From: Thermoanaerobaculia bacterium
GTDB taxonomy: Bacteria > Acidobacteriota > Thermoanaerobaculia > Gp7-AA8
Direction of reading: 5' to 3'
Length of the DNA stretch: 38,705 nt
Assembly: GCA_017883215.1 (NCBI GenBank)
Contig: JADGOA010000001.1
Span: 1-38,705 of the forward strand
The translations under genes and the position numbers were made by a program. The notes under the pieces were generated by a model. That model searched no databases and was not told the origin of the DNA. It was given only the letters and a program-made list of their open reading frames with translations. This document shows positions 1 through 38,247 of this stretch, in pieces. Position 1 is the stretch's first letter, and each line of letters opens with the position of its first letter.

Positions 1-18
1 TTTCTGGTTTCTGGTTTC
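1..18 (+). repeat. Truncated heptad array TTCTGGT x2 plus TTCGG abutting the tRNA 5' end (window edge)
   Basis: T TTCTGGT TTCTGGT TTCG, followed by the tRNA from position 19. The partner arm, if any, lies outside the window. Confidence 0.5.
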
Positions 19-108
19 GGAGAGATGGCCGAGTGGCTTAAGGCGCACGCTTGGAAAGCGTGTGTACGTTAACCCGTACCGTGGGTTCGAATCCCACTCT
101 CTCCGCCA
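19..108 (+). tRNA. tRNA-Ser (anticodon GGA), class II with long variable arm, CCA encoded
   Basis: Cloverleaf is readable by eye. Acceptor GGAGAGA/TCTCTCC; anticodon stem CACGC/GCGTG around loop TTGGAAA; variable arm GTACG..CGTAC; T-arm GTGGG-TTCGAAT-CCCAC; discriminator G then CCA. Confidence 0.93.
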
Positions 109-186
109 CTCCGCCGGCAAGACCGCGGGAATCGAAAAACCTGGCGCGCGGGATTTTCGGCTCTCCATTTCTCATTTTCCGTGTCA

Positions 187-317
187 GGTCCGCTGGGATG
201 AGCCCGGGTCCTGTGCAGCAGGCGCACCGAACCTCGTCAGGTCCGGAAGGAAGCAGCGATAAGGTGCTTCACCTGCGTGACACAGTCAGGCCTGGGCTCT
301 TCCGAGCGGACCTTTTT
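187..317 (+). ncRNA. ffs: Signal recognition particle RNA, small bacterial (4.5S-type); boundaries approximate
   Basis: Conserved domain IV motif GTCAGGTCCGGAAGGAAGCAGC at 236-257 with GGAA tetraloop. Flanks pair as a rod (GGTCCGCT 187-194 with AGCGGACC 305-312; GAGCCC with GGGCTC). T5 tract at 313-317. Canonical position just upstream of dnaX. Confidence 0.88.
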
Positions 318-325
318 GTCAGCGT

Positions 326-407
326 GTGGCGAGTCGCGAGTGGCGAGCAGGGGAACGGCCCGACGGGCAACCTACTCGCTACTGGCTACTCGCTACTCGC
401 TATACTC
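326..407 (+). repeat. Heptad-arm hairpin element A (GCGAGTR / TACTSGC family)
   Basis: 5' arm GTGGCGA GTCGCGA GTGGCGA (326-346). Loop around 354-370. 3' arm TACTCGC TACTGGC TACTCGC TACTCGC TATACTC (373-407). Arms pair at 17 of 21 positions by eye. Confidence 0.85.
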
Positions 408-415
408 ACCCACCC

Positions 416-2044
416 ATGTCTTATCAGGCCCTCGCGCGGAAGTACCGGCCGCAGCGCTTCAGCGACATCATCGGTCAGGACACGATCGTCCGGACGCTCC
501 AGAACGCCATCGAGAGCGGGCGCATCCACCACGCCTATCTTTTCTCCGGCGTTCGCGGTGTAGGGAAGACCACCGGGGCGCGCATCCTGGCCAAGGCCCT
601 GAACTGCGTCCACGGACCGACCATCGAGCCGTGCAACGAGTGCACGGCCTGCGTCGAGATCACCGAGGGCATCGATCTGGACGTGCGTGAGATCGATGCC
701 GCGACGTATACCGGCGTCGACAACATCCGCGAGTTGCGCGAGGCCACGCAGTTCCAGCCTGCCCGCGACCGTTACCGCATCTTCATCGTCGACGAAGCGC
801 ACATGCTCTCCACGCCTGCGTGGAACGCGCTGCTGAAGATCCTGGAGGAGCCGCCTGCGCACGTCATTTTCATGTTTGCGACGACCGAGGTGCACAAGGT
901 GCCGCAGACGATCCTCTCCCGGGTGCAGAAGTTCGCGCTCCGGAAGATCACGCTCGACGAACTGATCGCGCGTCTCGACGACATCGCCGGCAAGGAAGGC
1001 ATTCAGACCGACCGCGTCTCGCTGGAGATCATCGCCCGCAGGGGCGAGGGAAGCGTCCGCGACGCGCTCTCGCTGCTCGATCAGGTGATCGCATTCAGCG
1101 GCCGTTCCATCACGGCAGCCGACGTGGCTACCGTCCTCGGCCTTTCGGAGACGATCTTTTTCGCGCGGATCGTGGCCCTGATGGCCGACGGCGACCACTC
1201 CGGCATCCTGGAAGCGCTCCAGGAAGCGGCGGACATGGGACGCGATTTCAAGATGCTGTACCGCGACCTGCTCGGCTTCGTCCGCAACCTGCTGCTGATC
1301 GCCGGCGGGGCGAACGAATCGATGCTGGCCGCTTCGCCGGAGGATCTCGTGACGATCCGCTCGGTCTCGGACAGCTTCTCGTACACCGAGATTCTGCGCA
1401 TCGCCAATCTGCTGCTGCGCGACGACGAGACGGTGAACCGAGCCGAGCATCAACGGCTTGCGGTCGAGATCGCGCTCCTGAAGGCGGCCACGTTTCCGCG
1501 GCTGCGGGCCGTGGAGGATGTTCTCTCCGGCAGCGCCACGCCGGAGCGGCCGGCGCCAGCGGCCCGCCGCAGCGCCCCACCTGCAGAGTCGGCACCTCGT
1601 CCGCCCGCCTCCCGCGCCGCTGCATCTCCCTCAGCGAGATCTCAGAGTGCGCCGGCTGCAACGAAGGCCGCCGCAGAAGCTCCTCATCCGGTTCCGGAGG
1701 GCGCCGCCGACGTTTCCGCACTGATCGCGCGCCTTCAGAAGGCCAAGCCTCTCATCGCGACGTATCTCAGCAACGCGATCAGCGTGCGCAGGCAAGGCGG
1801 CCGCATCGCCTGGACTTTCGACGACTCGTTCTACGCCGACGCCGTCTCCGACGCCCGCGCCACGATCGAGCCGATCGCATCGGAAGTCTTCGGTGAGCCC
1901 ATCACGATCGAAGCGACGGCCGGTTCGCCTGCGCCCGCGGCGCGGCGCGCCGAAGACAAGCCCTCCGCACTCCGTGACGATCCCCTCGTCCGCGCGTTCC
2001 AGAAGCACCTCGGCGGCGAGATCGTCGACTCGAAAAAGCGTTAA
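416..2044 (+). CDS. dnaX: DNA polymerase III subunit gamma/tau
   Basis: [22 protein letters not shown]-terminus, [15 protein letters not shown] Walker A, Cys cluster [29 protein letters not shown] Walker B, SRVQKF sensor, Pro/Ala-rich linker and C-terminal domain. The ORF track starts at GTG 326, but 326-407 is a repeat hairpin, so ATG 416 is preferred. Confidence 0.95.
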
Positions 2045-2055
2045 GGAGACTCCAC

Positions 2056-2355
2056 ATGAATCCCAAACAGCTGATGAAACAGGTTCAGCAGATGCAGGCC
2101 CAGATGCAGCAGCGCATGGCCGAGCTGCGCGTCGAAGGAAGCGCCGGCGGCGGAATGGTGAAAGCGACCATGAACGGATCGAAGGATCTGCTGGCCGTTG
2201 TCATCGACAAGGAAGCCGTCGATCCGAACGACGTGGAGATGCTCCAGGATCTCGTCGTCGCCGCAGTGAACGAAGCCGCCCGAAAAGTCGACGAGGAAAT
2301 GCAGGGCCAGCTCGGCGCCATGACCGGCGGCATGAATATTCCGGGCCTCTTTTGA
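2056..2355 (+). CDS. ybaB: YbaB/EbfC family nucleoid-associated protein
   Basis: 99 aa with Q/M-rich N-terminus and the [35 protein letters not shown] pattern typical of YbaB. AAGGAG RBS at 2043-2048. Lies between dnaX and recR. Confidence 0.93.
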
Positions 2356-2356
2356 C

Positions 2357-2421
2357 GAGCGAGTGGCAAGTAGGGAAACCGGCGTTCTCTCCTACTCGCT
2401 ACTCGCTACTCGCTACTCGCT
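2357..2421 (+). repeat. Heptad-arm hairpin element B (same family as A)
   Basis: 5' arm GAGCGAGTGGCAAGTAGGGA (2357-2376). 3' arm TCTCC followed by TACTCGC x4 (2388-2421). 16 Watson-Crick pairs plus 2 G-U out of 20 in the inner register. Confidence 0.88.
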
Positions 2422-2426
2422 GAAAA

Positions 2427-3023
2427 ATGACAGCTCCTCCCTTAGCGAATCTCATCAACGAGCTCACCAAGCTGCCGGGTGTCGGCGGCAAGTCAGCGTC
2501 ACGTCTGGCGTACTGGATCCTGAAGCGTTCACCTGGAGAGGCGGAAGCGCTTGCTGCTGCCATCCTCGACGTGAAGCAGAAGATCTTCCGCTGCTCGATC
2601 TGCAACAACATGACGGACGTGGAACCGTGCGCGATCTGCACCGATTCGCGCCGCGATCCGACCGTCGTTTGCGTGGTGGAGGAAGCCTTCAACATCGCCA
2701 CGATCGAACAGACGCGCGAGTTCAAGGGGATGTTCCATGTCCTGCTCGGCGCGCTGTCGCCGCTGAAAGGGATCGGACCGCAGGATATCGACGTGGCCGG
2801 GCTCGTGAAGCGCGTCCAGGGGGGCTCGGTGCGCGAGGTGATCATCGCGACCAACCCGAACGTGGAAGGGGAGGCCACTGCGCTGTATATCGCGCAGCAA
2901 CTGCGGCCGATCGGCGTCAAGGCGACACGGCTCGCCTTCGGGCTGCCCGTGGGCGGCGATCTCGAATACGCAGACCAGGTGACGATGGCCAAAGCGCTCG
3001 AGGGTCGAAGAGAGATCGGGTAA
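2427..3023 (+). CDS. recR: Recombination protein RecR
   Basis: [20 protein letters not shown] helix-hairpin-helix, C4 zinc finger [16 protein letters not shown], Toprim region VCVVEE...[17 protein letters not shown]. Confidence 0.96.
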
Positions 3024-3024
3024 T

Positions 3025-3093
3025 GGGCAGTGCGCAGCAGGCAGTGGGCGGTGCGCAGGGGAAGACCGTTCCACTGCGCACTGCCCACTGCCC
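3025..3093 (+). repeat. Heptad-arm hairpin element C (GGGCAGT/GCGCAGY family)
   Basis: 5' arm GGGCAGT GCGCAGC AGGCAGT GGGCGGT GCGCAGG. Loop AAGACCGTT. 3' arm CCACTGC GCACTGC CCACTGC CC. Positions 3039-3061 pair with 3071-3093 at 20 of 23. Confidence 0.88.
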
Positions 3094-3121
3094 GTCGCGC
3101 TAGGTTCCTAAGTGTTTCCTG

Positions 3122-3130
3122 TGCTATACA
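3122..3130 (+). promoter_or_regulatory. Candidate extended -10 element TGcTATACA upstream of mglB
   Basis: TG at 3122-3123 and TATACA at 3125-3130, 35 nt upstream of ATG 3165. No convincing -35. Confidence 0.3.
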
Positions 3131-3164
3131 TTGCCGTCCGTTCCACGGGTACTGGTGACATCGA

Positions 3165-3665
3165 ATGGCCTCTCCTGATCTCGTGATGTACGAGGAGGAG
3201 TACCAGCAGATCAAGGACACGCTTCATCGTCTGCAGGTCGACTCCAACTCGAAAATCGTCTTTCTGGTCGACAAAAACGGCCAGCAGATCGCCTCAATGG
3301 GCGACATGCAGGGCGTCGACGCGACCTCCCTCGCCTCGCTGACGGCGGGGAACGTCGCCGCGACCGACGGACTTGCCAAACTCATCGGCGAAAAAGAGTT
3401 CTCCATCCTTTTTCACGAAGGGGAGAAGGACAACATCCACATCTCGCTGGTCGCCCAGCGAGTGATCCTCGTCGTCATCTTCGACGAGCGATCGTCACTC
3501 GGGTTGGTGCGGCTGCGGGTCAAGAAGGCCTCGGTTGAGCTCGAGCGGACATTTGAGGTGCTGCTGAAGAAGGCCGAAGCGGACCGGGGCAGTCTGGCAA
3601 ATCGCTTCGACTCGCCGTTCGCTGAGATCACAGACGAGGACATCGACAGCCTCTTCAGCGAATAG
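3165..3665 (+). CDS. mglB: Roadblock/LC7-domain protein, MglB-like GTPase-activating partner of MglA
   Basis: 166 aa with a Roadblock-like core ([13 protein letters not shown]...[19 protein letters not shown]...[15 protein letters not shown]) and an acidic C-terminal tail. Ends 5 nt upstream of mglA. Confidence 0.8.
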
Positions 3666-3670
3666 ACGCA

Positions 3671-4255
3671 ATGACCTTCATCAACTACGCCGCGCGGGAG
3701 ATCAACTGCAAGATCGTCTACTACGGCCCCGGCCTGTGCGGTAAGACGACCAACCTGCAGTGGATCTACGACAAGACCAATCCCCAGGCGAAGGGGAAGC
3801 TGATCTCGCTCGCCACGGAAACCGATCGTACGCTGTTCTTCGACTTTCTTCCCCTCGACCTCGGTACGGTCCGCGGATTCAAGACCCGCTTTCACCTCTA
3901 CACCGTCCCCGGCCAGGTGTTCTACGACGCCTCGCGCAAGCTGATCCTGAAGGGCGTCGACGGCATGGTGTTCGTCGCCGACTCGCAGGAAGCACGCATG
4001 GAAGCGAACGTGGAGTCGATCCAGAACCTCGACAGAAACCTCAAAGAACAGGGCTACGACCTTCAGACCGTGCCGTATGTCCTGCAGTTCAACAAGCGCG
4101 ATCTGCCGACGGCGCTGGCGATGGACGAGATGTATCGGCAGCTCAATTTCAAAGGGGAGCCAACCTTCGAAGCGGTGGCCATGAGCGGGACCGGCGTCTT
4201 CGACACGCTCAAGGCGATCGCCAAGCTCGTGTTGCTCGAGCTGAAAAAGAAGTGA
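3671..4255 (+). CDS. mglA: Ras-like small GTPase MglA
   Basis: Very close to my recollection of Myxococcus MglA: [42 protein letters not shown], the MglA-type [10 protein letters not shown] switch II, and NKRD. Confidence 0.95.
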
Positions 4256-4400
4256 TCTCGCGACCGGCGATGCTCGCCCGCCGCATGATCGAGTACTGAG
4301 CGGAGCAGGAGCCGCTGACCGGCGTCCGCGCGCATGGCCAGAGAGCCGACGCGCTGAGCCGTTCCTGTTTGCGACCACTCCGACGATAGAATCGCCCCAA

Positions 4401-5444
4401 ATGCGTCAGGGTTTGAACATCGTCGCCATCGGCGGCGGCACCGGATTGTCGACCCTTCTCCGCGGATTGAAGACGTACGTCGGCGCGGAAGGGGCGTGGT
4501 CGATCGCACGGCTTGCTGCGATCGTCACAGTCACCGACGAGGGCGGATCCTCCGGTGTGCTGCGGCGGCAGTTCGGGATGCTCCCGCCTGGAGACGTCCG
4601 CAACTGCATCGTCGCTCTCGCCGAAGAAGAGCATTTGCTGTCACAGGTATTCAACTACCGCTTCGCCGAGGAGTCGGAGTTCAAAGGGCATTCGCTGGGC
4701 AATCTCCTGCTGATGGCCATGACGGAGATCACCGGCAGCTTCGAGGACGCGGTACTGGCGGCCTCGGAAGTCCTGAACATCCGCGGCGAGATCTTTCCCT
4801 CGACACTGCAGGATGTGCGGCTCCGCGCGACGCTGGAGGACGGCACGGTTCTGATCGGCGAGGTTGCGATCAGCGGCTCTTTCCTCGGAGAAAAAGCGAG
4901 CACCAAACCGCGGCATGCACGCATCGCCACCGTCGCCATCGATCCACCTGACGCGGCCCCGGTTCAGCGGGCCCTCGATGCGCTCGCTGCAGCGGACCTC
5001 ATCATCATCGGGCCGGGCTCGCTCTACACTTCCATCCTGCCGAACCTCGCCATCCGTCCGCTCGCCGAGGCGCTGCGGAACTCGCGGGCGTTGCGCGTCT
5101 ACGTCTGCAACGTCATGACACAACCCGGCGAGACCGACAATTACGCGGCGCAGGACCACCTCAACGCCATCGTGGAGCACGCCGGTCTCGTCGTCGACGT
5201 CATGGTCATGAACGGGCGCAGGCCATCCGATGCGATCGTCGCGGCATACGCGGTCGAAAACCAGCATCCCGTCGAATTCGACGCTGCGAAAGTGCACGAG
5301 CTCGGCGTCACGCCTTTCTTCGGCGACGTCATCGCAGAGGGGAATTACGTGCGTCACGATTCGCCGGCGCTGGCAGATACGATCTTCCGGCTCTACGACC
5401 GCTACGGCCGCGCCAGAGAAAGGATGCGGCGAAGCGAAGGATGA
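4401..5444 (+). CDS. yvcK: YvcK/CofD-family (UPF0052) gluconeogenesis factor-like protein
   Basis: IVAIGGGTGLSTLLRGLK N-terminal motif, VTVTDEGGSSG, GHSLGNLLL and IIIGPGSLYTSILPNL are typical of the YvcK/CofD family. Confidence 0.85.
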   Translation: MRQGLNIVAIGGGTGLSTLLRGLKTYVGAEGAWSIARLAAIVTVTDEGGSSGVLRRQFGMLPPGDVRNCIVALAEEEHLLSQVFNYRFAEESEFKGHSLGNLLLMAMTEITGSFEDAVLAASEVLNIRGEIFPSTLQDVRLRATLEDGTVLIGEVAISGSFLGEKASTKPRHARIATVAIDPPDAAPVQRALDALAAADLIIIGPGSLYTSILPNLAIRPLAEALRNSRALRVYVCNVMTQPGETDNYAAQDHLNAIVEHAGLVVDVMVMNGRRPSDAIVAAYAVENQHPVEFDAAKVHELGVTPFFGDVIAEGNYVRHDSPALADTIFRLYDRYGRARERMRRSEG

Positions 5445-5451
5445 GCCATTG

Positions 5452-5493
5452 GGCATGACGCCTGACGCAGTCACGGCGCTCAGGAGTCATGCC
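5452..5493 (+). repeat. Hairpin element K (NNNNTGA heptads)
   Basis: GGCATGA CGCCTGA CGCAGTC / ACGGCGC TCAGGAG TCATGCC. Stems of 8, 5 and 3 bp with small bulges. Confidence 0.7.
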
Positions 5494-5519
5494 TGATCCC
5501 TCATCCCGGGAGCTCACAT

Positions 5520-6920
5520 ATGAACGAGAACCTCGAAGTCATCATCCTCGCGGCCGGTCTGGGCACGCGAATGAAGTCGGCCACCATCAAGATTCTTCAT
5601 CACGCCGCCGGCCGCCCCATCATCGATTACGTTCTCGACCTCGCGGCAGAAGTGTCCGGCCGCAATCCCATCGTCGTGGTCGGGCATCAACGCGAAGCCG
5701 TTCAGCAGGCCATCGGCGACCGAGCGCGGTTCGCCGTTCAGGAGCAGCAACTCGGAACCGGGCACGCCGTCATGCAGGCGGCGCAGCTCCTGGAGAGCGA
5801 ACACACTCCTGGCGGCACGGTCCTGATCCTCTCCGGCGATGTGCCGCTCACGCGCAGAGAAACGCTGCAGTCGCTCGTCGAGCAGCACCGGCGTGAGGCG
5901 AACGCGCTGACACTGCTGAGCATGAAACTCGATCAGCCGGCCATGTACGGCCGGATCGTGCGCGACGCCGACGGCACCGTGATGCGCATCGTGGAAGCGA
6001 AAGATGCCAGCGACGCGGAGAAGGCCATCCAGGAAGTGAACGCCGGGATCTACGTCTTCGACAGCGCGGACCTGCTGGCGAATCTCCGTCAGCTGTCGAC
6101 CGACAACACTCAAGGCGAGTATTACCTGACCGACCTGATCGGCATGATTCGCAACGCCGGCAAGCGCGTCGGGGCGGTCGTGGCCGCAGATCCGGTGGAA
6201 GCGCTGGGCGTGAATTCGCGAGGCGAGCTGGCGATCGTCGAAGCCGAAATTCAGAAGCGGGTCGTGCAGAAGCTCATGACCGAAGGAGTGACGTTCCGCA
6301 ATCCGACGACCGTGGTCGTCGACTCGACCGTGAGCATCGGCGCGGACTCGGTGGTCTATCCGTTCGTCACGATCGAGGGGACGACGCGCATCGGCGAGCG
6401 TTGCGTCATCGAGCCCGGCGCGCACCTGATCAACGTGACCATCGGCAACGACGTCCACGTGAAGACCGGCACGGTAGCCGAGGAGAGCACGATTGCCGAT
6501 TCGTCGGTGGTCGGGCCGTACGCCCATCTCCGCCCCGGCACGAAGCTCGGCGAGCACGTGAAGGTCGGCAACTTCGTGGAGACCAAGAAGGCCGTGTTCG
6601 GCGCCGGCGCGAAAGCGTCGCACCTCTCGTACATCGGCGACGCTGAGATCGGTGCGGACGTGAACATCGGTGCGGGAACCATCACCTGCAACTACGACGG
6701 CGTCAACAAGCACAAGACGGTGCTCGAGGACGGCGTGTTCATCGGCTCGGATACGCAACTGGTGGCGCCCGTCAGGATCGGCCGCGGCGCCTATGTCGGC
6801 GCGGGATCGACGATCACCATGGACGTGCCGGCGGATGCTCTCGCCCTCTCGCGCGTTCCCCAGAAGATCGTCGAGGGCTGGGCAACGCGCCGCCGTGAAA
6901 AGCTGAAGAAGCCGAAATAG
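5520..6920 (+). CDS. glmU: Bifunctional UDP-N-acetylglucosamine pyrophosphorylase / glucosamine-1-phosphate N-acetyltransferase
   Basis: ILAAGLGTRMKS nucleotidyltransferase motif, LILSGDVPL, YYLTD, then a long left-handed beta-helix of hexapeptide repeats ending CNYDGVNKHKT. Confidence 0.95.
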   Translation: MNENLEVIILAAGLGTRMKSATIKILHHAAGRPIIDYVLDLAAEVSGRNPIVVVGHQREAVQQAIGDRARFAVQEQQLGTGHAVMQAAQLLESEHTPGGTVLILSGDVPLTRRETLQSLVEQHRREANALTLLSMKLDQPAMYGRIVRDADGTVMRIVEAKDASDAEKAIQEVNAGIYVFDSADLLANLRQLSTDNTQGEYYLTDLIGMIRNAGKRVGAVVAADPVEALGVNSRGELAIVEAEIQKRVVQKLMTEGVTFRNPTTVVVDSTVSIGADSVVYPFVTIEGTTRIGERCVIEPGAHLINVTIGNDVHVKTGTVAEESTIADSSVVGPYAHLRPGTKLGEHVKVGNFVETKKAVFGAGAKASHLSYIGDAEIGADVNIGAGTITCNYDGVNKHKTVLEDGVFIGSDTQLVAPVRIGRGAYVGAGSTITMDVPADALALSRVPQKIVEGWATRRREKLKKPK

Positions 6921-18497: not shown

Positions 18498-18583
18498 CCT
18501 AGTCTCGGAGAGCAGCCGGCCGCGACGCCAGCACTCCTGATGAACGACAGCTGAGCACCTCAGGCCTCGCTATACTCGGTGCG

Positions 18584-20341: not shown

Positions 20342-20436
20342 CGTCTCGTCACGCAGCCAAACGCTCGGTCCCACGAGCGCATTCCGCACTCTTGTTACAC
20401 ATGAAGGCCGCCGGGGAACCTGCTGCGGGCAGGGAG

Positions 20437-20520
20437 CGGCGAGTGGCGGTTTGAGGAAAAGACGAGCCGTCGGAAGGACGGCTAATCCTCGCCGCCTACT
20501 CGCCGCTTGCTGCTCGCTGC
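20437..20520 (-). repeat. Composite hairpin element D (GGCGAGTGGCG / CTACTCGCC motif, related to A/B) with nested inner hairpin
   Basis: GCGGCGAGTGGCGGTTTGAGGA (20436-20457) pairs with TCCTCGCCGCCTACTCGCCGC (20486-20506). Inner hairpin AGCCGTC-GGAAG-GACGGCT (20465-20483). Confidence 0.75.
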
Positions 20521-20521
20521 C

Positions 20522-21187
20522 TCAGGCGTGCTCGCTGTCGCCCTCAGCCCAGATCTCGTCGGCGAGAACGCGCTCGATGCGCGATTCGTAGTAACGGATC
20601 GTGGCGCGGCTTACCGCGCGTACGGCGGCGTAGTTGAGCACTCCGCCGGAGACGGCGCCGACGATGGGAATCATCTTCGCCATGCGTTCCCTGGCGATGC
20701 GCGTTCCGATCTTCTCCGCGATGACGCCGCCCTCCATCGTCGCCGACTCGAGAACGGTGGCGATGCCCTGCTTGCCGACGCCGACGCCTGATGCGTACGC
20801 GAGGCATTGCAGCGCCTCGGAGAACCGCTCGCGCGACGATGGCTCATGACCGTACAGAGTGGCGATGCCCAGGATGAGGCGGAACTGTTGATACACGAGA
20901 TAGGCGAGGTCGGCTCCCAGCGTCCCGATGGCGATGAAGCCAGAGGGAAGTCCGGTCACCGCACCGGCTGCGGCACAACGGATGGCCGTTCGGCGCGCCA
21001 GCGTACGGGCATAGTCTTTCGCCTCATAGTCAGGTGCGGCGGCCCGAAGCTCGTCCACTTCCTTGCGGATCTTGCCGGTGTCGATCTCTTCGAAAAGCGC
21101 GCGGAAGACTTCTTCCAGAACCGAGTCCGCTCGCTTCTTGAATGCTCGCGCTTTTCCCATGGTGATCGCCGCACTGATGACAGTCAC
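20522..21187 (-). CDS. EcsC-family-like protein
   Basis: Pattern ARRTAIRCAAAGAVTGLPSGFIAIGTLGADLAYLVYQQFRLILGIATLYG resembles EcsC-family proteins. This is from memory, not a search. GTG start overlaps the FmdB stop (GTGA). Confidence 0.5.
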   Translation of the reverse strand: MTVISAAITMGKARAFKKRADSVLEEVFRALFEEIDTGKIRKEVDELRAAAPDYEAKDYARTLARRTAIRCAAAGAVTGLPSGFIAIGTLGADLAYLVYQQFRLILGIATLYGHEPSSRERFSEALQCLAYASGVGVGKQGIATVLESATMEGGVIAEKIGTRIARERMAKMIPIVGAVSGGVLNYAAVRAVSRATIRYYESRIERVLADEIWAEGDSEHA

Positions 21188-21582: not shown

Positions 21583-21623
21583 GGGCGGTGGGCAGTGCCA
21601 GCAGACTGCCGCGCACTGCCCAC
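21583..21623 (-). repeat. Hairpin element E (GGGCAGT family, as in C)
   Basis: GGGCGGT GGGCAGT GCC... with an 11-bp perfect stem: GTGGGCAGTGC (21588-21598) pairing with GCACTGCCCAC (21613-21623). Confidence 0.75.
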
Positions 21624-22298: not shown

Positions 22299-22406
22299 GA
22301 AAGCGAGTAGCGCGTCGCGCGTGGCGTGGTCGGGGACGGAGGTCCATGCAGTTCGTTGTCGGCTTTCGTCGGCCTTACTTGCGACTCGCTACTCGCTACT
22401 CGCTTC
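22299..22406. repeat. Heptad-arm hairpin element F (GCGAGTA family) in a divergent intergenic region
   Basis: 5' arm AGCGAGT AGCGCGT CGCGCGT GGCGTGG (22302-22329). 3' arm TGCGACT CGCTACT CGCTACT CGCTTC (22380-22406). 12 contiguous bp at the base (22301-22312 with 22394-22405), then imperfect pairing. Roughly 45-nt loop. Confidence 0.75.
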
Positions 22407-24017: not shown

Positions 24018-26312
24018 ATGCCGCGACGTCTACGGCGCAAATGGCTCGTCCTGGGCGTGACGATCCCCATCGCGATCGGGTCGATCGCGCTGGGCATCTA
24101 CTTCCTCGTTTGGGAGCGGAAGTCGCACGAAGAGACGCGTCAGCACGCAAAGCCCGAGGCTCCGCCGGATCTGCAGAAGCTTCGCAACACATATGCGGCC
24201 GGCCTGGAGGCGGTTCAACGCGGGGACGGCGTCGATGCCGTCAAACAGTTCAGCTCCTTTACCTTTCACGACCGCGCTGTCGAGGAGTACCGGCTCTACT
24301 ACCTCGCCGTGGGCCAGCAGCTGATGCACGACGCCAAGCGGGCGCGCTTGACGCTGGCATTGCTGGAGGCGCGACAGCCGGCGTTCGTCTTCGCCGACGA
24401 CGCCGGTCTGACGTTGGCCGGTCTCTACGGAGGTGTCGCGGACTGGCGCCACACAGCCGGCCAATACGCCGCGGTGGCGTCCCGGACCGACTCGCCCGCA
24501 GTTGCGGCCGCGGCGCGCTGGGGGGAGGTCGAATCACGATTCTTCAGCGGCGACGTCGCGGCATCGATCGCCGCGGCGCGCCAGATCGCCATCAAGAGTC
24601 CGCGATCATCGCAGGCCGCATCGGCACTGGGGCTGCTGCGCGGCATCGACGGCACCGGGCCGGACGGCATGGTGCCGTTCTCGCCTGCCGAGCGCCTGGA
24701 GCGAGCGGTCTCTCTTCTGCGCGATGGTGACCCGCAGTCCGCGTTCGGCGAGCTGAGCGCACTGGAGCCGCTTGCTCCCTCCTCGATTCGCGATGCCGTC
24801 CGACTCAACGAAGGCCTCGCCCTCAACAGCCTCCATCGATACGAGGACTCGAACAAGATTCTCGACATGCTCGCATCCGGCCCGTTCAGGATCGCCATTC
24901 CGGCGATCTACACCGCGTCGAAGAACTACCGAGCCATTGCTGCCTCCATCAATCCGATAGTCATAAAGACCATCGTGCAGCGAAAGCAGGTCGGCAAGCG
25001 GAAGGTGACGGTCGGCAAAGGGGAGAAGCGCCGAACGATCATCCGGCCAAGATTCGCGAACGTGAAGAAGAACGTGCAGCTCGTCGACCTCGCGAAGAAG
25101 GCGAAGAAAGACGAGGCCGACCGCCTGGCGACGGAACGGTTGAAGGACCTGCTGCAGATCGAGACCGTCGCGCCCGAGGTGCGGCTGGAGGTGCTGAAAA
25201 CGCTGATCGGCATCACCGACGCGAAAAATCAGGATGCGTACGAACAGGAGCTGGTCGGCGAAGTGGTGAAGATCGATCCCTACGCGGATCCGGCTCTGCA
25301 GCACTTCTGGGACAAGGCCTGGGCGGCGTATTCCCGCGGTGACCTCAATGGCGCGAAGCCTCTGTTCCGCTTCATCGCCGACACCTACGGCAATCCGAAC
25401 GTAAAGCGGCAGGCGGAATACTGGTACGCCAGAACCATCGAGCGCCTCGGTGCGAAGGAAGAATCGGCCGCGATCTACCGCCGGCTCGCTTCCGCACCGT
25501 ACGAGGACATCTACTCCGTCCACTCCGTCGGCCGCGGCGCGCCCCGCGGCGTGGCCACGACGAATCCGCTGAAGATGAACCGTCCCGACTGGCGGGACAT
25601 CGCCGAACAGACCATGCCGGGCGGCCTGCGGCTGGCTTACGAGCTGACGGCCCTGAACGACATGCGCGACGCGCAGCTGGAGATCCGCAAGAATGCGGGC
25701 TTCGTGAACCGGCACTTCACCAACGCGCTGCTGGCCGATCTGTACAACAGCGCCGGCAACGCCGACCTCACGTATCGAACCATCCGCGCCGCGTTTCCGC
25801 AGCTCGCCACCGTCGAACAGGACGCCGTCCCACCGTACTTCTTGAAAATCTACTACCCGGTTCGGTACGAGGACGCCATCCTGAAAGACTCGCGTCGATT
25901 CGACGTCGACCCCTATCTGGTCATGGCGCTCATTCTTCAGGAGAGCTATTTCAACCCCAAAGCGAAGTCGCGGGTGGGAGCAACCGGCCTGATGCAACTC
26001 ATGCCCGGCACCGGGAAAGAGCTCGGCCAGAAGCTGCACGGCCGCTTCAGCATCACCCGCCTGAACGATCCTGATACGAACATCGAGCTCGGTACGTACC
26101 ACCTGCGGCACATGATTCAGATCTTCGCCGGCCACGTTCCGCTCGCCGTGGCGTCCTACAACGCCGGACAGGGAAACGTTCTGAAGTGGCGGAGGGCGGC
26201 CGCTTCGAAGCCGATGGACGAGTTTCTGGAATCGATTCCGTTCCCTGAAACACGCAACTATGTCAAACGGGTCACGCTTCTCCGCTCGTCATACGCACGC
26301 ATCGCGCAGTAA
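24018..26312 (+). CDS. Soluble lytic murein transglycosylase (Slt70-like) with N-terminal TM/signal anchor and superhelical domain
   Basis: C-terminal SLT domain LILQESYFNPKAKSRVGATGLMQLMPGT with catalytic Glu, and AVASYNAGQGNV. Long helical repeat region upstream. Confidence 0.88.
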   Translation: MPRRLRRKWLVLGVTIPIAIGSIALGIYFLVWERKSHEETRQHAKPEAPPDLQKLRNTYAAGLEAVQRGDGVDAVKQFSSFTFHDRAVEEYRLYYLAVGQQLMHDAKRARLTLALLEARQPAFVFADDAGLTLAGLYGGVADWRHTAGQYAAVASRTDSPAVAAAARWGEVESRFFSGDVAASIAAARQIAIKSPRSSQAASALGLLRGIDGTGPDGMVPFSPAERLERAVSLLRDGDPQSAFGELSALEPLAPSSIRDAVRLNEGLALNSLHRYEDSNKILDMLASGPFRIAIPAIYTASKNYRAIAASINPIVIKTIVQRKQVGKRKVTVGKGEKRRTIIRPRFANVKKNVQLVDLAKKAKKDEADRLATERLKDLLQIETVAPEVRLEVLKTLIGITDAKNQDAYEQELVGEVVKIDPYADPALQHFWDKAWAAYSRGDLNGAKPLFRFIADTYGNPNVKRQAEYWYARTIERLGAKEESAAIYRRLASAPYEDIYSVHSVGRGAPRGVATTNPLKMNRPDWRDIAEQTMPGGLRLAYELTALNDMRDAQLEIRKNAGFVNRHFTNALLADLYNSAGNADLTYRTIRAAFPQLATVEQDAVPPYFLKIYYPVRYEDAILKDSRRFDVDPYLVMALILQESYFNPKAKSRVGATGLMQLMPGTGKELGQKLHGRFSITRLNDPDTNIELGTYHLRHMIQIFAGHVPLAVASYNAGQGNVLKWRRAAASKPMDEFLESIPFPETRNYVKRVTLLRSSYARIAQ

Positions 26313-26314
26313 AT

Positions 26315-26387
26315 GGAAGTGATCGGAAGTGATCAGTCAGAATACGCGGAAGCCACTGATCACCGATCACTGATCACTGATCACTTC
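26315..26387 (+). repeat. Heptad-arm hairpin element H (GATC-rich AGTGATC/ACTGATC family)
   Basis: 5' arm GGAAGTGATCGGAAGTGATCAGTCAG. Loop about AATACGCGGAAGC. 3' arm ACTGATC ACCGATC ACTGATC ACTGATC ACTTC. Stems of 9 and 10 bp with a 3-nt bulge. Six GATC sites. Confidence 0.88.
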
Positions 26388-26388
26388 G

Positions 26389-26799
26389 ATGAACCAACGA
26401 ATCGCCGCTTTCACCGGCTTCTCAGGCTCGGGCAAGACGACGCTGATCGTGGCTTTGATCGGGCGGCTGGTCGCCGATGGCCGCACAGTGGCGGCAATCA
26501 AGCACACGCATCATCCTCTGAACGAGGAGAACCGCGGCGACACCGCGAGGTTCCGGGCCGCCGGCGCCGAGCCCGTGATTCTGGCCGGCGATGGTGGTGG
26601 CGTGGTCTTCACGAGCGGCGGCACGAACCGCATCACCTACGGCTCGCCGGTGGACCTGCTACGGCATCTGGACACGGAGGTGGTTCTCGTGGAGGGCTTC
26701 AAATCATTCAGCGGCTGGCCGAACGTCGAGATCACAAGCGAGCGGCGACCGAGCGTCGAAGAGGTTCTGGCGATTCTCGATAGAATCTGGACCTCATGA
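26389..26799 (+). CDS. mobB: Molybdopterin-guanine dinucleotide biosynthesis adapter protein MobB
   Basis: IAAFTGFSGSGKTTLI P-loop, AAIKHTHH, VLVEGFK. Confidence 0.85.
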   Translation: MNQRIAAFTGFSGSGKTTLIVALIGRLVADGRTVAAIKHTHHPLNEENRGDTARFRAAGAEPVILAGDGGGVVFTSGGTNRITYGSPVDLLRHLDTEVVLVEGFKSFSGWPNVEITSERRPSVEEVLAILDRIWTS

Positions 26800-30889: not shown

Positions 30890-30927
30890 CCTGTTAGGGC
30901 GCTCTCCCGTTACAATCAACCTCCTGA

Positions 30928-31935: not shown

Positions 31936-32019
31936 GTAGGGACGCGCAGCAGCGCGTCCGCAACTCTCGTCGGCCCTCCCGCCCACCGGAGCTGCGGGCG
32001 CGCTGCTGCGCGCCCCTAC
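31936..32019 (+). repeat. Twin-hairpin element J (two mutually complementary 8-bp/tetraloop hairpins 36 nt apart)
   Basis: GTAG-GGACGCGC-AGCA-GCGCGTCC (31936-31959) and GGGCGCGC-TGCT-GCGCGCCC-CTAC (31996-32019). The arms are reverse complements except for one compensated base pair. Confidence 0.85.
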
Positions 32020-38092: not shown

Positions 38093-38150
38093 GGCCTAAC
38101 TCCGTCATCCTGAGAGGCTGTGCAGAAATCGGATAGAAGTGAACAGCCGA

Positions 38151-38223
38151 TGTGGCACAGACACTCCTGTCTGTGCTTCTGCAGCGCATTCCGCCCGGCA
38201 CAGACAAGAGTGTCTGTGCCACA
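38151..38223. repeat. Twin-hairpin element I
   Basis: TGTG-GCACAGACA-CTCC-TGTCTGTGC (38151-38176) and G-GCACAGACA-AGAG-TGTCTGTGC-CACA (38197-38223). 26-nt inverted repeat with 1 mismatch. Confidence 0.85.
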
Positions 38224-38247
38224 CGGGCTTCTCCGTTCTGGAAAGGC

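Follow-up and report, generated by a model that had tools for sequence, protein, structure and literature searches.

What fills the 71 nt between ybaB and recR, and does it bear on the expression of recR? The locus lies in a stretch of 38,705 nt from a Thermoanaerobaculia bacterium (contig JADGOA010000001.1, positions 1 to 38,705 of the forward strand; hereafter the window), in which the whole gap between the ybaB stop codon and the recR start codon is occupied by a hairpin that we call element B. The initial annotation of the window had read this hairpin as a device for the coupling or tuning of translation, and not as a simple terminator. Here, we conclude with a probability of roughly 0.6 that element B is a copy of a slippage-prone family of inverted heptamer arrays resembling repetitive extragenic palindromes (REPs), that it may tune recR translation, and that it is neither a terminator nor a device dedicated to this junction. 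The family is built as an inverted pair of heptanucleotide arrays: (GCGAGTA)n, a short loop, and (TACTCGC)n. The junction is composed as follows.

2056-2355, + strand: ybaB coding sequence (open reading frame, ORF; YbaB/EbfC DNA-binding protein), stop codon TGA at 2353-2355
2356-2426, + strand: element B as a whole, from ybaB to recR
2357-2376, + strand: 5' arm of element B, GAGCGAGTGGCAAGTAGGGA, degenerate G-rich heptads (GA GCGAGTG GCAAGTA GGGA)
2377-2389, + strand: loop and apical region of element B, AACCGGCGTTCTC
2390-2421, + strand: 3' arm of element B, TCC, four exact TACTCGC units (2393-2420), then T
2422-2426, + strand: GAAAA spacer ahead of the recR start, without a Shine-Dalgarno sequence
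2427-3023, + strand: recR coding sequence with an ATG start; RecR HhH/ZnF/Toprim domains

The initial annotation had placed the TGA, the four TACTCGC units, the GAAAA and the recR ATG correctly; the 5' arm, described there as about three heptads, holds about two heptads and GGGA. The identical ybaB gene in a related locus (L120; such loci carry the prefix L) matched Pfam PF02575. Tandem Repeats Finder (TRF) delimits the 3' arm at 2392-2421, with 4.3 copies and a 100% match. The stable hairpin claimed between the two genes is real: in the predicted minimum free energy (MFE) structure it spans 2358-2421 at about -31 kcal/mol, pairs 2358-2376 with 2403-2421, and has a mismatched stem of 19 Watson-Crick and two G-U pairs (2365-2414 and 2381-2400). 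The surrounding 101-nt region folds at -36.8 kcal/mol (z = -3.19), and only 1/200 shuffled sequences folded equally well. The double heptad TACTCGCTACTCGC, allowing at most two mismatches, occurs 13 times in the window versus 0.31 expected, a number reached in 0/100 shuffles. Period 7 is the sole enriched short period of the window, with seven arrays found by a simple self-match scan, while periods 5, 6 and 8-11 gave 0-1. Thus, given the double-heptad excess, the enrichment of period 7 and the z-score of the fold, the structure of element B is beyond chance. Rfam returned no match at element B, either at the gathering threshold or with E up to 10, and none at the gathering threshold for the hairpins of 18 other loci.

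Two nearly isoenergetic registers are predicted for the stem, a distal one at -31.1 and a proximal one at -30.7 kcal/mol, and the register sliding proposed earlier therefore holds in prediction. The expected closeness of stop and start upon folding survives in part: the two are predicted to adjoin at the stem base in the distal register only, and in the proximal register, as in the three-copy allele carried by the majority, the stem base would lie 13-20 nt from the recR AUG. An in-frame TGA at 2421-2423 means that recR has no start farther upstream. The two strands fold almost alike, at -31.1 (+) versus -31.2 (-) kcal/mol for the 71-nt gap and -36.8 (+) versus -37.9 (-) kcal/mol for the 101-nt region. 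The tetranucleotide TGAC is found at both ends of element B, at 2353-2356 on the left, where it includes the stop TGA, and at 2428-2431 on the right, in the A-TGAC start; in relatives without the element one xTGAC contains both the overlapping stop and the start. TGAC was considered as a target-site duplication of 3-4 bp and set aside as not diagnostic, since any surviving insertion must retain the stop and the xTG-ACx start.

Element B shares the window, which has a G+C content of 64%, with other hairpins of the same kind. At least seven hairpins with tandem 7-mer arms occur in the 38.7 kb, all heptad arrays being intergenic; counted per unit, there are three to four copies of the TACTCGC type and two of the CACTGCC type. 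These hairpins, and the genes at the left end of the window, are listed below.

1-20, + strand: TTTCTGG x 2.6, the cut-off 3' arm of a heptad hairpin upstream of tRNA-Ser
19-105: tRNA-Ser, left end of the window
202-300: signal recognition particle (SRP) RNA, left end of the window
326-403, + strand: element A, a GCGAGTn/TACTCGC hairpin between SRP RNA and dnaX with the same unit as element B, -46 kcal/mol
416-2044: dnaX, left end of the window
3024-3100, + strand: element C, GGCAGTG/CACTGCC-type heptads, -58 kcal/mol, beginning 1 nt past the recR stop
20418-20524: long degenerate CTCGCCG/TACTCGC-like hairpin, -74 kcal/mol, just beyond the 3' end of a minus-strand gene
21583-21623: second CACTGCC-type hairpin, just beyond the 3' end of a minus-strand gene
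22300-22405, + strand: element D, a TACTCGC-family hairpin in a divergent intergenic region
26313-26388, + strand: element E, a GGAAGTGATC/CACTGAT hairpin that occupies the gap from a TAA stop (26310-26312) to an ATG (26389)

Elements B, C and E and the hairpins at 21583-21623 and 20418-20524 all lie 1-3 nt past a stop codon or just beyond the 3' end of a gene, and element E occupies its TAA-to-ATG gap as tightly as element B does. Near-exact gap filling is a trait of the hairpin class and not of the ybaB-recR junction.

The number of units differs among close relatives, at constant position, for elements A, B and C. With copy numbers taken from assemblies, including short-read contigs, six of the contigs with an identical RecR have three TACTCGC units whereas the window and L127 have four, and the four-copy state of element B is the minority allele. 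Element A has 4 or 5 copies among relatives, and element C has one extra unit in L130. Three short-read contigs of the same species begin within element B or at its edge (L126:1-35, L128:1-28 and L129:1-25), and such breaks are consistent with an assembly interrupted by a repeat that is multi-copy or polymorphic. In relatives whose RecR is 99% identical, the loop has 3 additional nt and TACGCGC stands as the first unit, with two or three TACTCGC behind it. At 96% (L134) both arms are altered, with GCGCGTA GCGGGTA GCGTGTG versus TACACGC TACCCGC, and at 90% (L136) they consist of GCGGGTA and of TACCCGC x4. L138, with an 87% identical RecR, lacks the element: its junction is TGA-TCAC-TTG, with a gap of 4 nt. 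Element B is retained, with complementary arms, across 4-10% RecR divergence.

Element B was gained by an ancestor of the present lineage, between genes that then overlapped or stood a few nt apart, and it now evolves by replication slippage, with three or four units within the species. Both arms alter together, and other copies in the same genome with them. Thus, L136 has GCGGGTA/TACCCGC at both the A and the B site, where the window has GCGAGTA/TACTCGC at both, and L149 has two near-identical GTTGCCn/CCGGCAA hairpins about 1.7 kb apart. Since units are common to loci within one genome and different between genomes at one locus, their distribution suggests that copies are pasted from one another or converted by one another, as happens in REP populations.

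We then turn to the history of the junction itself, which was called in 82 loci (the window and L134-L218) by tblastn anchoring on YbaB. The two genes overlap or abut (-4 to +1 nt) in 26/82 and are separated by a spacer of 2-36 nt in another 26/82; a long gap of 39-150 nt with a fold of -17 to -83 kcal/mol is present in a further 26/82, and a long gap with a weak fold in 4/82. In other words, a long ybaB-recR gap is a strong hairpin in 26/30 cases. Tandem 7-mers make up 15 of these 26 hairpins and 8-mers five, and across the related loci TRF found 148 period-7 versus 40 period-8 arrays. The units at the junction are all different (GGTTGCC, GATCGTG, GTTGGCG, CGCGGATT, CGGGAAA, GGAAGAA and others), with at least 15 unit sequences distributed patchily over the tree. 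As the hairpin junctions are scattered on the RecR tree, the site has been colonised many times. The adjacent dnaX-ybaB junction, with gaps of -4 to 14 nt, bears a hairpin in 0/26 loci, and the difference from 26/82 is significant (Fisher p = 3.7e-4).

Between the stop and the MFE stem base there are 0-3 nt in about 20/29 junction hairpins, and between that base and the start at most 5 nt in about 21/29; the stems contain 13-46 Watson-Crick pairs, at least 20 in most. A Shine-Dalgarno sequence ahead of recR is absent, by eye, at almost all hairpin junctions; L204 has GGAG. The frequent overlap or abutment of the two genes (26/82), together with long gaps that are mostly hairpins near both stop and start, would fit a recR that is translationally linked to ybaB. 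The recR start codon follows the type of junction. ATG is used at 24/26 hairpin and 20/26 spacer junctions (44/52 taken together), while TTG or GTG is used in 15/17 junctions at -4, 0 or +1 nt (ATG in 2/17). Because hairpin junctions use ATG as spacer junctions do, and overlapped ones use TTG or GTG, the coupled state of overlapping genes is not simply brought back by the hairpin.

The G-rich arm is the 5' arm in 25/29 junction hairpins (p = 1e-4), and copies are more numerous in the 3' arm than in the 5' arm of 29 hairpins, with the opposite imbalance in 8 (p = 7.5e-4). G-rich arms also come first beyond the clade. GTDB genomes contain exact (TACTCGC)3 at more than 119 sites, in hosts that include Rhizobiales, Gemmatimonadales, Chloroflexota, Planctomycetota, Verrucomicrobiota, Acidimicrobiia, cyanobacteria and Vibrio. 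An inverted GCGARTA-type array lies at most 100 nt upstream of 45/126 TACTCGC arrays and downstream of 1. G-rich-arm-first is a strand-independent handedness that holds almost always (25/29; 45 to 1); conceivably, it keeps C-rich, Rho-loading RNA from being transiently exposed. A crude ORF call gave 16 convergent, 19 co-directional and 3 divergent pairs of genes around the GTDB hairpins, with mostly fewer than 15 nt between a hairpin and the gene that ends at it. In this set the more stable strand does not track gene direction.

Several further features of the GTDB set were seen. The (GCGARTA)n, loop, (TAYTCGC)n arrangement is present in many phyla and reaches 15 tandem copies in Mesorhizobium loti (L032), and several genomes have multiple matches, e.g., Acidimicrobiia SMAG_U14414 with five loci. 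As in element B, TAGGGA is frequently found at the end of the 5' arm of these hairpins (by eye, uncounted). On the sense strand of the syntenic region the surplus of units lies in the C-rich 3' arm; the GTDB set has no such link with gene direction.

What could such an element do to recR? The initial annotation had stressed that recR is not preceded by a Shine-Dalgarno sequence. The absence is confirmed, with no GGAG, GAGG or AGGA in the 20 nt ahead of the ATG, but it is not special, since most genes of the window are without one; among seven called genes nearby a clear Shine-Dalgarno sequence is found at ybaB only (AAGGAG). Several genes without one have a TAnnnT -10-like box (TATACT, TAGAAT, TACAAT) 7-11 nt ahead of the ATG (window positions 400-415, 4385-4400, about 18565-18583, about 26776-26795 and 30908-30927), and the closeness of these boxes to the ATG suggests that leaderless mRNAs are probably common in this organism. 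The last heptad of element B (TACTCG) was tried as the -10 box of a leaderless recR transcript and rejected as weak, being without the conserved final T and at a place where no promoter was called. No sigma-70-like promoter was called anywhere in 1-6000. A terminator scan of the same region gave nothing at 2350-2430, its calls overall being at shuffle expectation, and the stem is followed by GAAAAAUG, with no U-tract; the earlier opinion that element B is not a simple terminator thus stands.

The copy number of the unit, on the other hand, has a predicted consequence. The probability that positions -20 to -1 before the recR AUG are unpaired climbs in the folding model with the number of TACTCGC units: 0.20 with two, 0.27 with three, 0.46 with four and 0.59 with five. 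On the strength of this trend the natural three-copy and four-copy alleles should differ in recR initiation.

Our preferred reading, a REP-like, slippage-prone element that may tune recR, can be put as a sequence of events. On the dnaX-ybaB-recR transcript the hairpin would form from 3 nt past the ybaB stop to 5 nt before the recR AUG. When translation of ybaB ends, the terminating ribosome would have to melt the basal helix, and this would free the complementary bases beside the recR AUG; the old translational link of ybaB and recR could thereby survive the insertion. The surplus 3' heptads would form an unstructured, pyrimidine-rich leader whose length is set by the heptad number, so that recR initiation, which proceeds without a Shine-Dalgarno sequence, may depend on that number as on a slippage-driven rheostat.

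Some of the observations speak against this account and have to be set beside it. All of its effects at the RNA level derive from folding predictions. Folding of the antisense strand is at least as favourable as that of the sense strand, and selection on the sense RNA is not indicated; the sense RNA is the more stable one in just 9/29 junction hairpins. The earlier suggestion that the G-U pairs hint at structure in the sense RNA is refuted, for two such pairs are present but both strands fold equally. The element is dispensable in many relatives, and the proposed copy-paste mobility is read from shared units and loops; no transposase was found, none having been looked for. Covariation in RNAalifold across six element B sequences amounts to compensatory change in 2/18 pairs, in three independent lineages, which are too few for it to count as evidence, with MAFFT moreover mis-registering the repeats in the alignment. 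Co-variation of the arms can also come from DNA-level template switching within the palindrome or from slippage, and not from selection. Finally, the 3'-arm surplus is possibly a replication or mutation bias, all compared loci being one syntenic region.

The anatomy of element B is also fitted by an RNase III or exonuclease element, by a neutral sequence and by a dedicated coupling device. In the first of these, a REP-like element of mRNA processing or stability would block 3' exonucleases and/or be cleaved by RNase III, so that the dnaX-ybaB message is stabilised, a recR mRNA with a short leader is released, and YbaB exceeds RecR. The stem begins 3 nt past the stop, as in many REPs, the class sits at gene 3' ends, and most junction hairpins reach at least 20 Watson-Crick pairs and are thus as long as an RNase III substrate. 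The genome also seems adept at leaderless or Shine-Dalgarno-less initiation, and ATG is strongly preferred with a hairpin; leaderless initiation needs AUG. The stem of element B itself, however, is short and mismatched, and an effect of this type would be common to any stable hairpin, and we consider the explanation possible but on the unlikely side. A comparably tentative place belongs to the view that the element is a neutral, selfish or mutational by-product, i.e., a slippage-prone palindrome persisting where its harm is slight. Its patchiness on the tree with at least 15 unit sequences, the variable copy number within the species and the equal folding of both strands speak for such a view, and heptamer repeats are reported as generally over-represented in bacteria, with slippage of the polymerase given as the cause (Mrazek 2007, as cited in PMC4679880 and PMC4692102). 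It sits poorly with the site bias (26/82 versus 0/26 at the adjacent junction), the almost invariable 5' position of the G-rich arm, the surplus of the 3' arm on the sense strand, and the persistence of complementary arms across 4-10% RecR divergence.

A strict coupling device, selected to bring the ybaB stop to the recR start for reinitiation, is closest to what had been proposed in the initial annotation. That the two genes often overlap or abut (26/82), that long gaps are almost solely hairpins closing stop to start, and that recR is without a Shine-Dalgarno sequence at almost all hairpin junctions would all be understandable. The same elements, however, lie where coupling is impossible, past the SRP RNA, in a divergent region and, in other phyla, at convergent 3' ends, and their presence, absence and copy number vary. 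In the three-copy allele and in the proximal register, 13-20 nt separate the AUG from the stem base; hairpin junctions use ATG like spacer ones, in contrast to the TTG or GTG of overlapped ones; and the absence of a Shine-Dalgarno sequence is normal in this genome. Moreover, stop and start are 71 nt apart in sequence, while in relatives without the element they are within a few nt. We thus regard strict coupling as unlikely; a coupling or tuning role is made plausible by the 82 junctions and the predicted accessibility, but it is not specific to this junction and is carried by an element that is polymorphic and absent in some relatives. Very improbable, in our opinion, is a U-tract-independent terminator or attenuator between ybaB and recR, with recR expressed by read-through or from its own promoter. 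A stable GC-rich hairpin does stand directly past the stop codon, and the class is enriched at convergent gene ends, but neither a terminator nor a promoter was called at the site, the overlap of the junction in relatives implies co-transcription of ybaB and recR, and the U-tract that intrinsic termination by bacterial RNA polymerases generally requires is missing.

Related structures were noted in other places. Full heptad hairpins of the kind cut off at window positions 1-20 occur in relatives: an A+T-rich one at L136:556-647 (AATTGAA/TCAATTT) lies between tRNA genes and just upstream of such genes, and similar hairpins stand in the corresponding upstream part of two further loci (L140:677-769, GAATTGA/TTCTCAA; L143:560-646, GAAAATT/TTTTCAA). 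The closest named relatives of RecR are labelled Thermoanaerobaculia or Acidobacteriota. Three long intergenic hairpins of the window are without a heptad period (5439-5506, 31936-32019 and 38135-38239), with arms of 27-42 nt that are 81-85% complementary. The one at 5439-5506 runs from the CofD stop to just ahead of the glmU start, and the one at 31936-32019, with GTAGGG at its start and CCCTAC at its end, is REP-like.

In six relatives dnaX itself contains an in-frame tandem-unit hairpin, within the variable linker right after domain III, the place where E. coli dnaX has its frameshift site and stem-loop. The units are the 8-mers CGCGGTCT/ACCGCGAG, or 7-mers in L153, and no slippery site of the A-AAA-AAG type was seen upstream of these hairpins in the six relatives. 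Their positions are:

L142:1520-1616: hairpin within dnaX
L144:1732-1866: hairpin within dnaX
L145:1883-1959: hairpin within dnaX
L146:1707-1800: hairpin within dnaX
L147:1762-1863: hairpin within dnaX
L153:1595-1685: hairpin within dnaX, 7-mer units

Heptanucleotide repeats have been known as over-represented since 2007, and their function and origin are still unexplained. The system described here offers a tractable anatomy, with a hairpin of fixed handedness, a repeatedly colonised junction in Acidobacteriota, three-copy and four-copy alleles, and a predicted graded accessibility of the start. If copy number does set RecR output, tuning by slippage would reach core DNA-repair genes of soil bacteria, beyond host-adapted pathogens, and REP-like repeats would be tied to translation in genomes mostly without Shine-Dalgarno sequences. 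If it has no effect, element B would be a clean example of selfish palindromes filtered by the constraints of operon junctions. A bolder and, as we see it, improbable generalisation is that tandem-heptad hairpins are a cross-phylum, self-propagating class of fixed handedness that colonise stop-proximal spacers, translationally coupled junctions among them, and serve there as ribosome-melted gates, with the slippage-variable 3' arm setting the output of a downstream cistron devoid of a Shine-Dalgarno sequence; were it true, a mobile repeat would provide a heritable, reversible 'volume knob' in non-pathogenic soil bacteria.

Among known systems, REPs are similar in genomic behaviour. They are RAYT-associated extragenic palindromes downstream of genes, tagged by GTAG or CGTC, some of them inside replication genes (PMC3733652), and those at most 15 nt from a stop codon are reported to cause stalling of ribosomes (Liang et al. 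2015, as cited in PMC12306157). Like REPs and REPINs, the hairpins described here are imperfect extragenic palindromes in species-specific families, probably with many copies per genome, placed mainly between co-directional or convergent genes just past stop codons, with some copies inside replication genes. Element B, at about 65 nt with arms of 20-32 nt, is longer than classical REPs of about 20-40 bp. The build is different, since the arms are tandem 7-8-nt units with copy-number slippage. Element B has no unpaired terminal GTAG or CGTC tag: its GTAG lies in paired units of the 5' arm and at the apex (GTAGGGA), and other unit families at the junction (GGTTGCC, CGGGAAA, GGAAGAA) are without GTAG. 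The doublet arrangement of REPINs and BIMEs (bacterial interspersed mosaic elements) was not seen, and neither was a gene for a RAYT (Y1 transposase), for which no search was made.

A likeness in build is found in Xanthomonas. Heptanucleotides are given as the most over-represented of the longer simple repeats in prokaryotes, which is ascribed to polymerase slippage (Mrazek 2007, in the citations of PMC4679880 and PMC4692102), and Xanthomonas genomes each have 70-75 convergent pairs of GGGAATC arrays that can form stem-loops (Rehm et al. 2015, PMC4692102), conserved in position and variable in length between species (PMC4692102). The period of 7, the intergenic location, the convergent pairs and the variable length at constant position are shared with the hairpins described here. 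The paired arrays appear to have the same handedness, the G-rich array standing first on the plus strand and the second array on the minus strand. The TACTCGC-family unit, in contrast, has no G3 tract and thus gives no G-quadruplex; the present hairpins exactly occupy gene junctions and could be traced through orthologous sites; and the TACTCGC/GCGARTA unit recurs across phyla.

In marine Beggiatoaceae, direct TAACTGA repeats sit just upstream of starts without ribosome-binding sites, and translational regulation was proposed for them (MacGregor 2015, PMC4679880). Heptamer arrays a few nt ahead of starts without a canonical ribosome-binding site are thus found in both systems, but the TAACTGA sets are almost all direct (169 direct, one indirect) and without an inverted partner. 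The short tandemly repeated repetitive (STRR) sequences of cyanobacteria are likewise tandem, intergenic, multi-copy heptanucleotides, and Calothrix and Xenococcaceae genomes are among the TACTCGC/TACTTGC matches. Classically, STRR sequences are described as direct arrays without a defined relation to stop or start codons. With respect to expression, the AGAT repeats upstream of Moraxella uspA2 are mentioned as an expression rheostat (in PMC4679880). There too, copy number between the promoter or stop and the start sets expression, as the graded effect predicted here would; such 5'-UTR (untranslated region) rheostats, however, belong to surface-protein genes of host-adapted pathogens and have no hairpin partner. 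At MS2 coat-replicase and T4 genes 25 and 38, upstream translation or a hairpin governs the access to, or the spacing of, the downstream start. Control of a downstream start by a hairpin or by upstream translation is the shared feature, but these are unique conserved structures with Shine-Dalgarno sequences and not dispersed repeats. A literature search on unit sequences (e.g., TACTCGC, GCGAATA) returned no relevant paper in the library searched, which is not proof of an undescribed family. As an inverted pair of heptamer repeats with REP-like behaviour, element B is a variant of something that is known but little understood.

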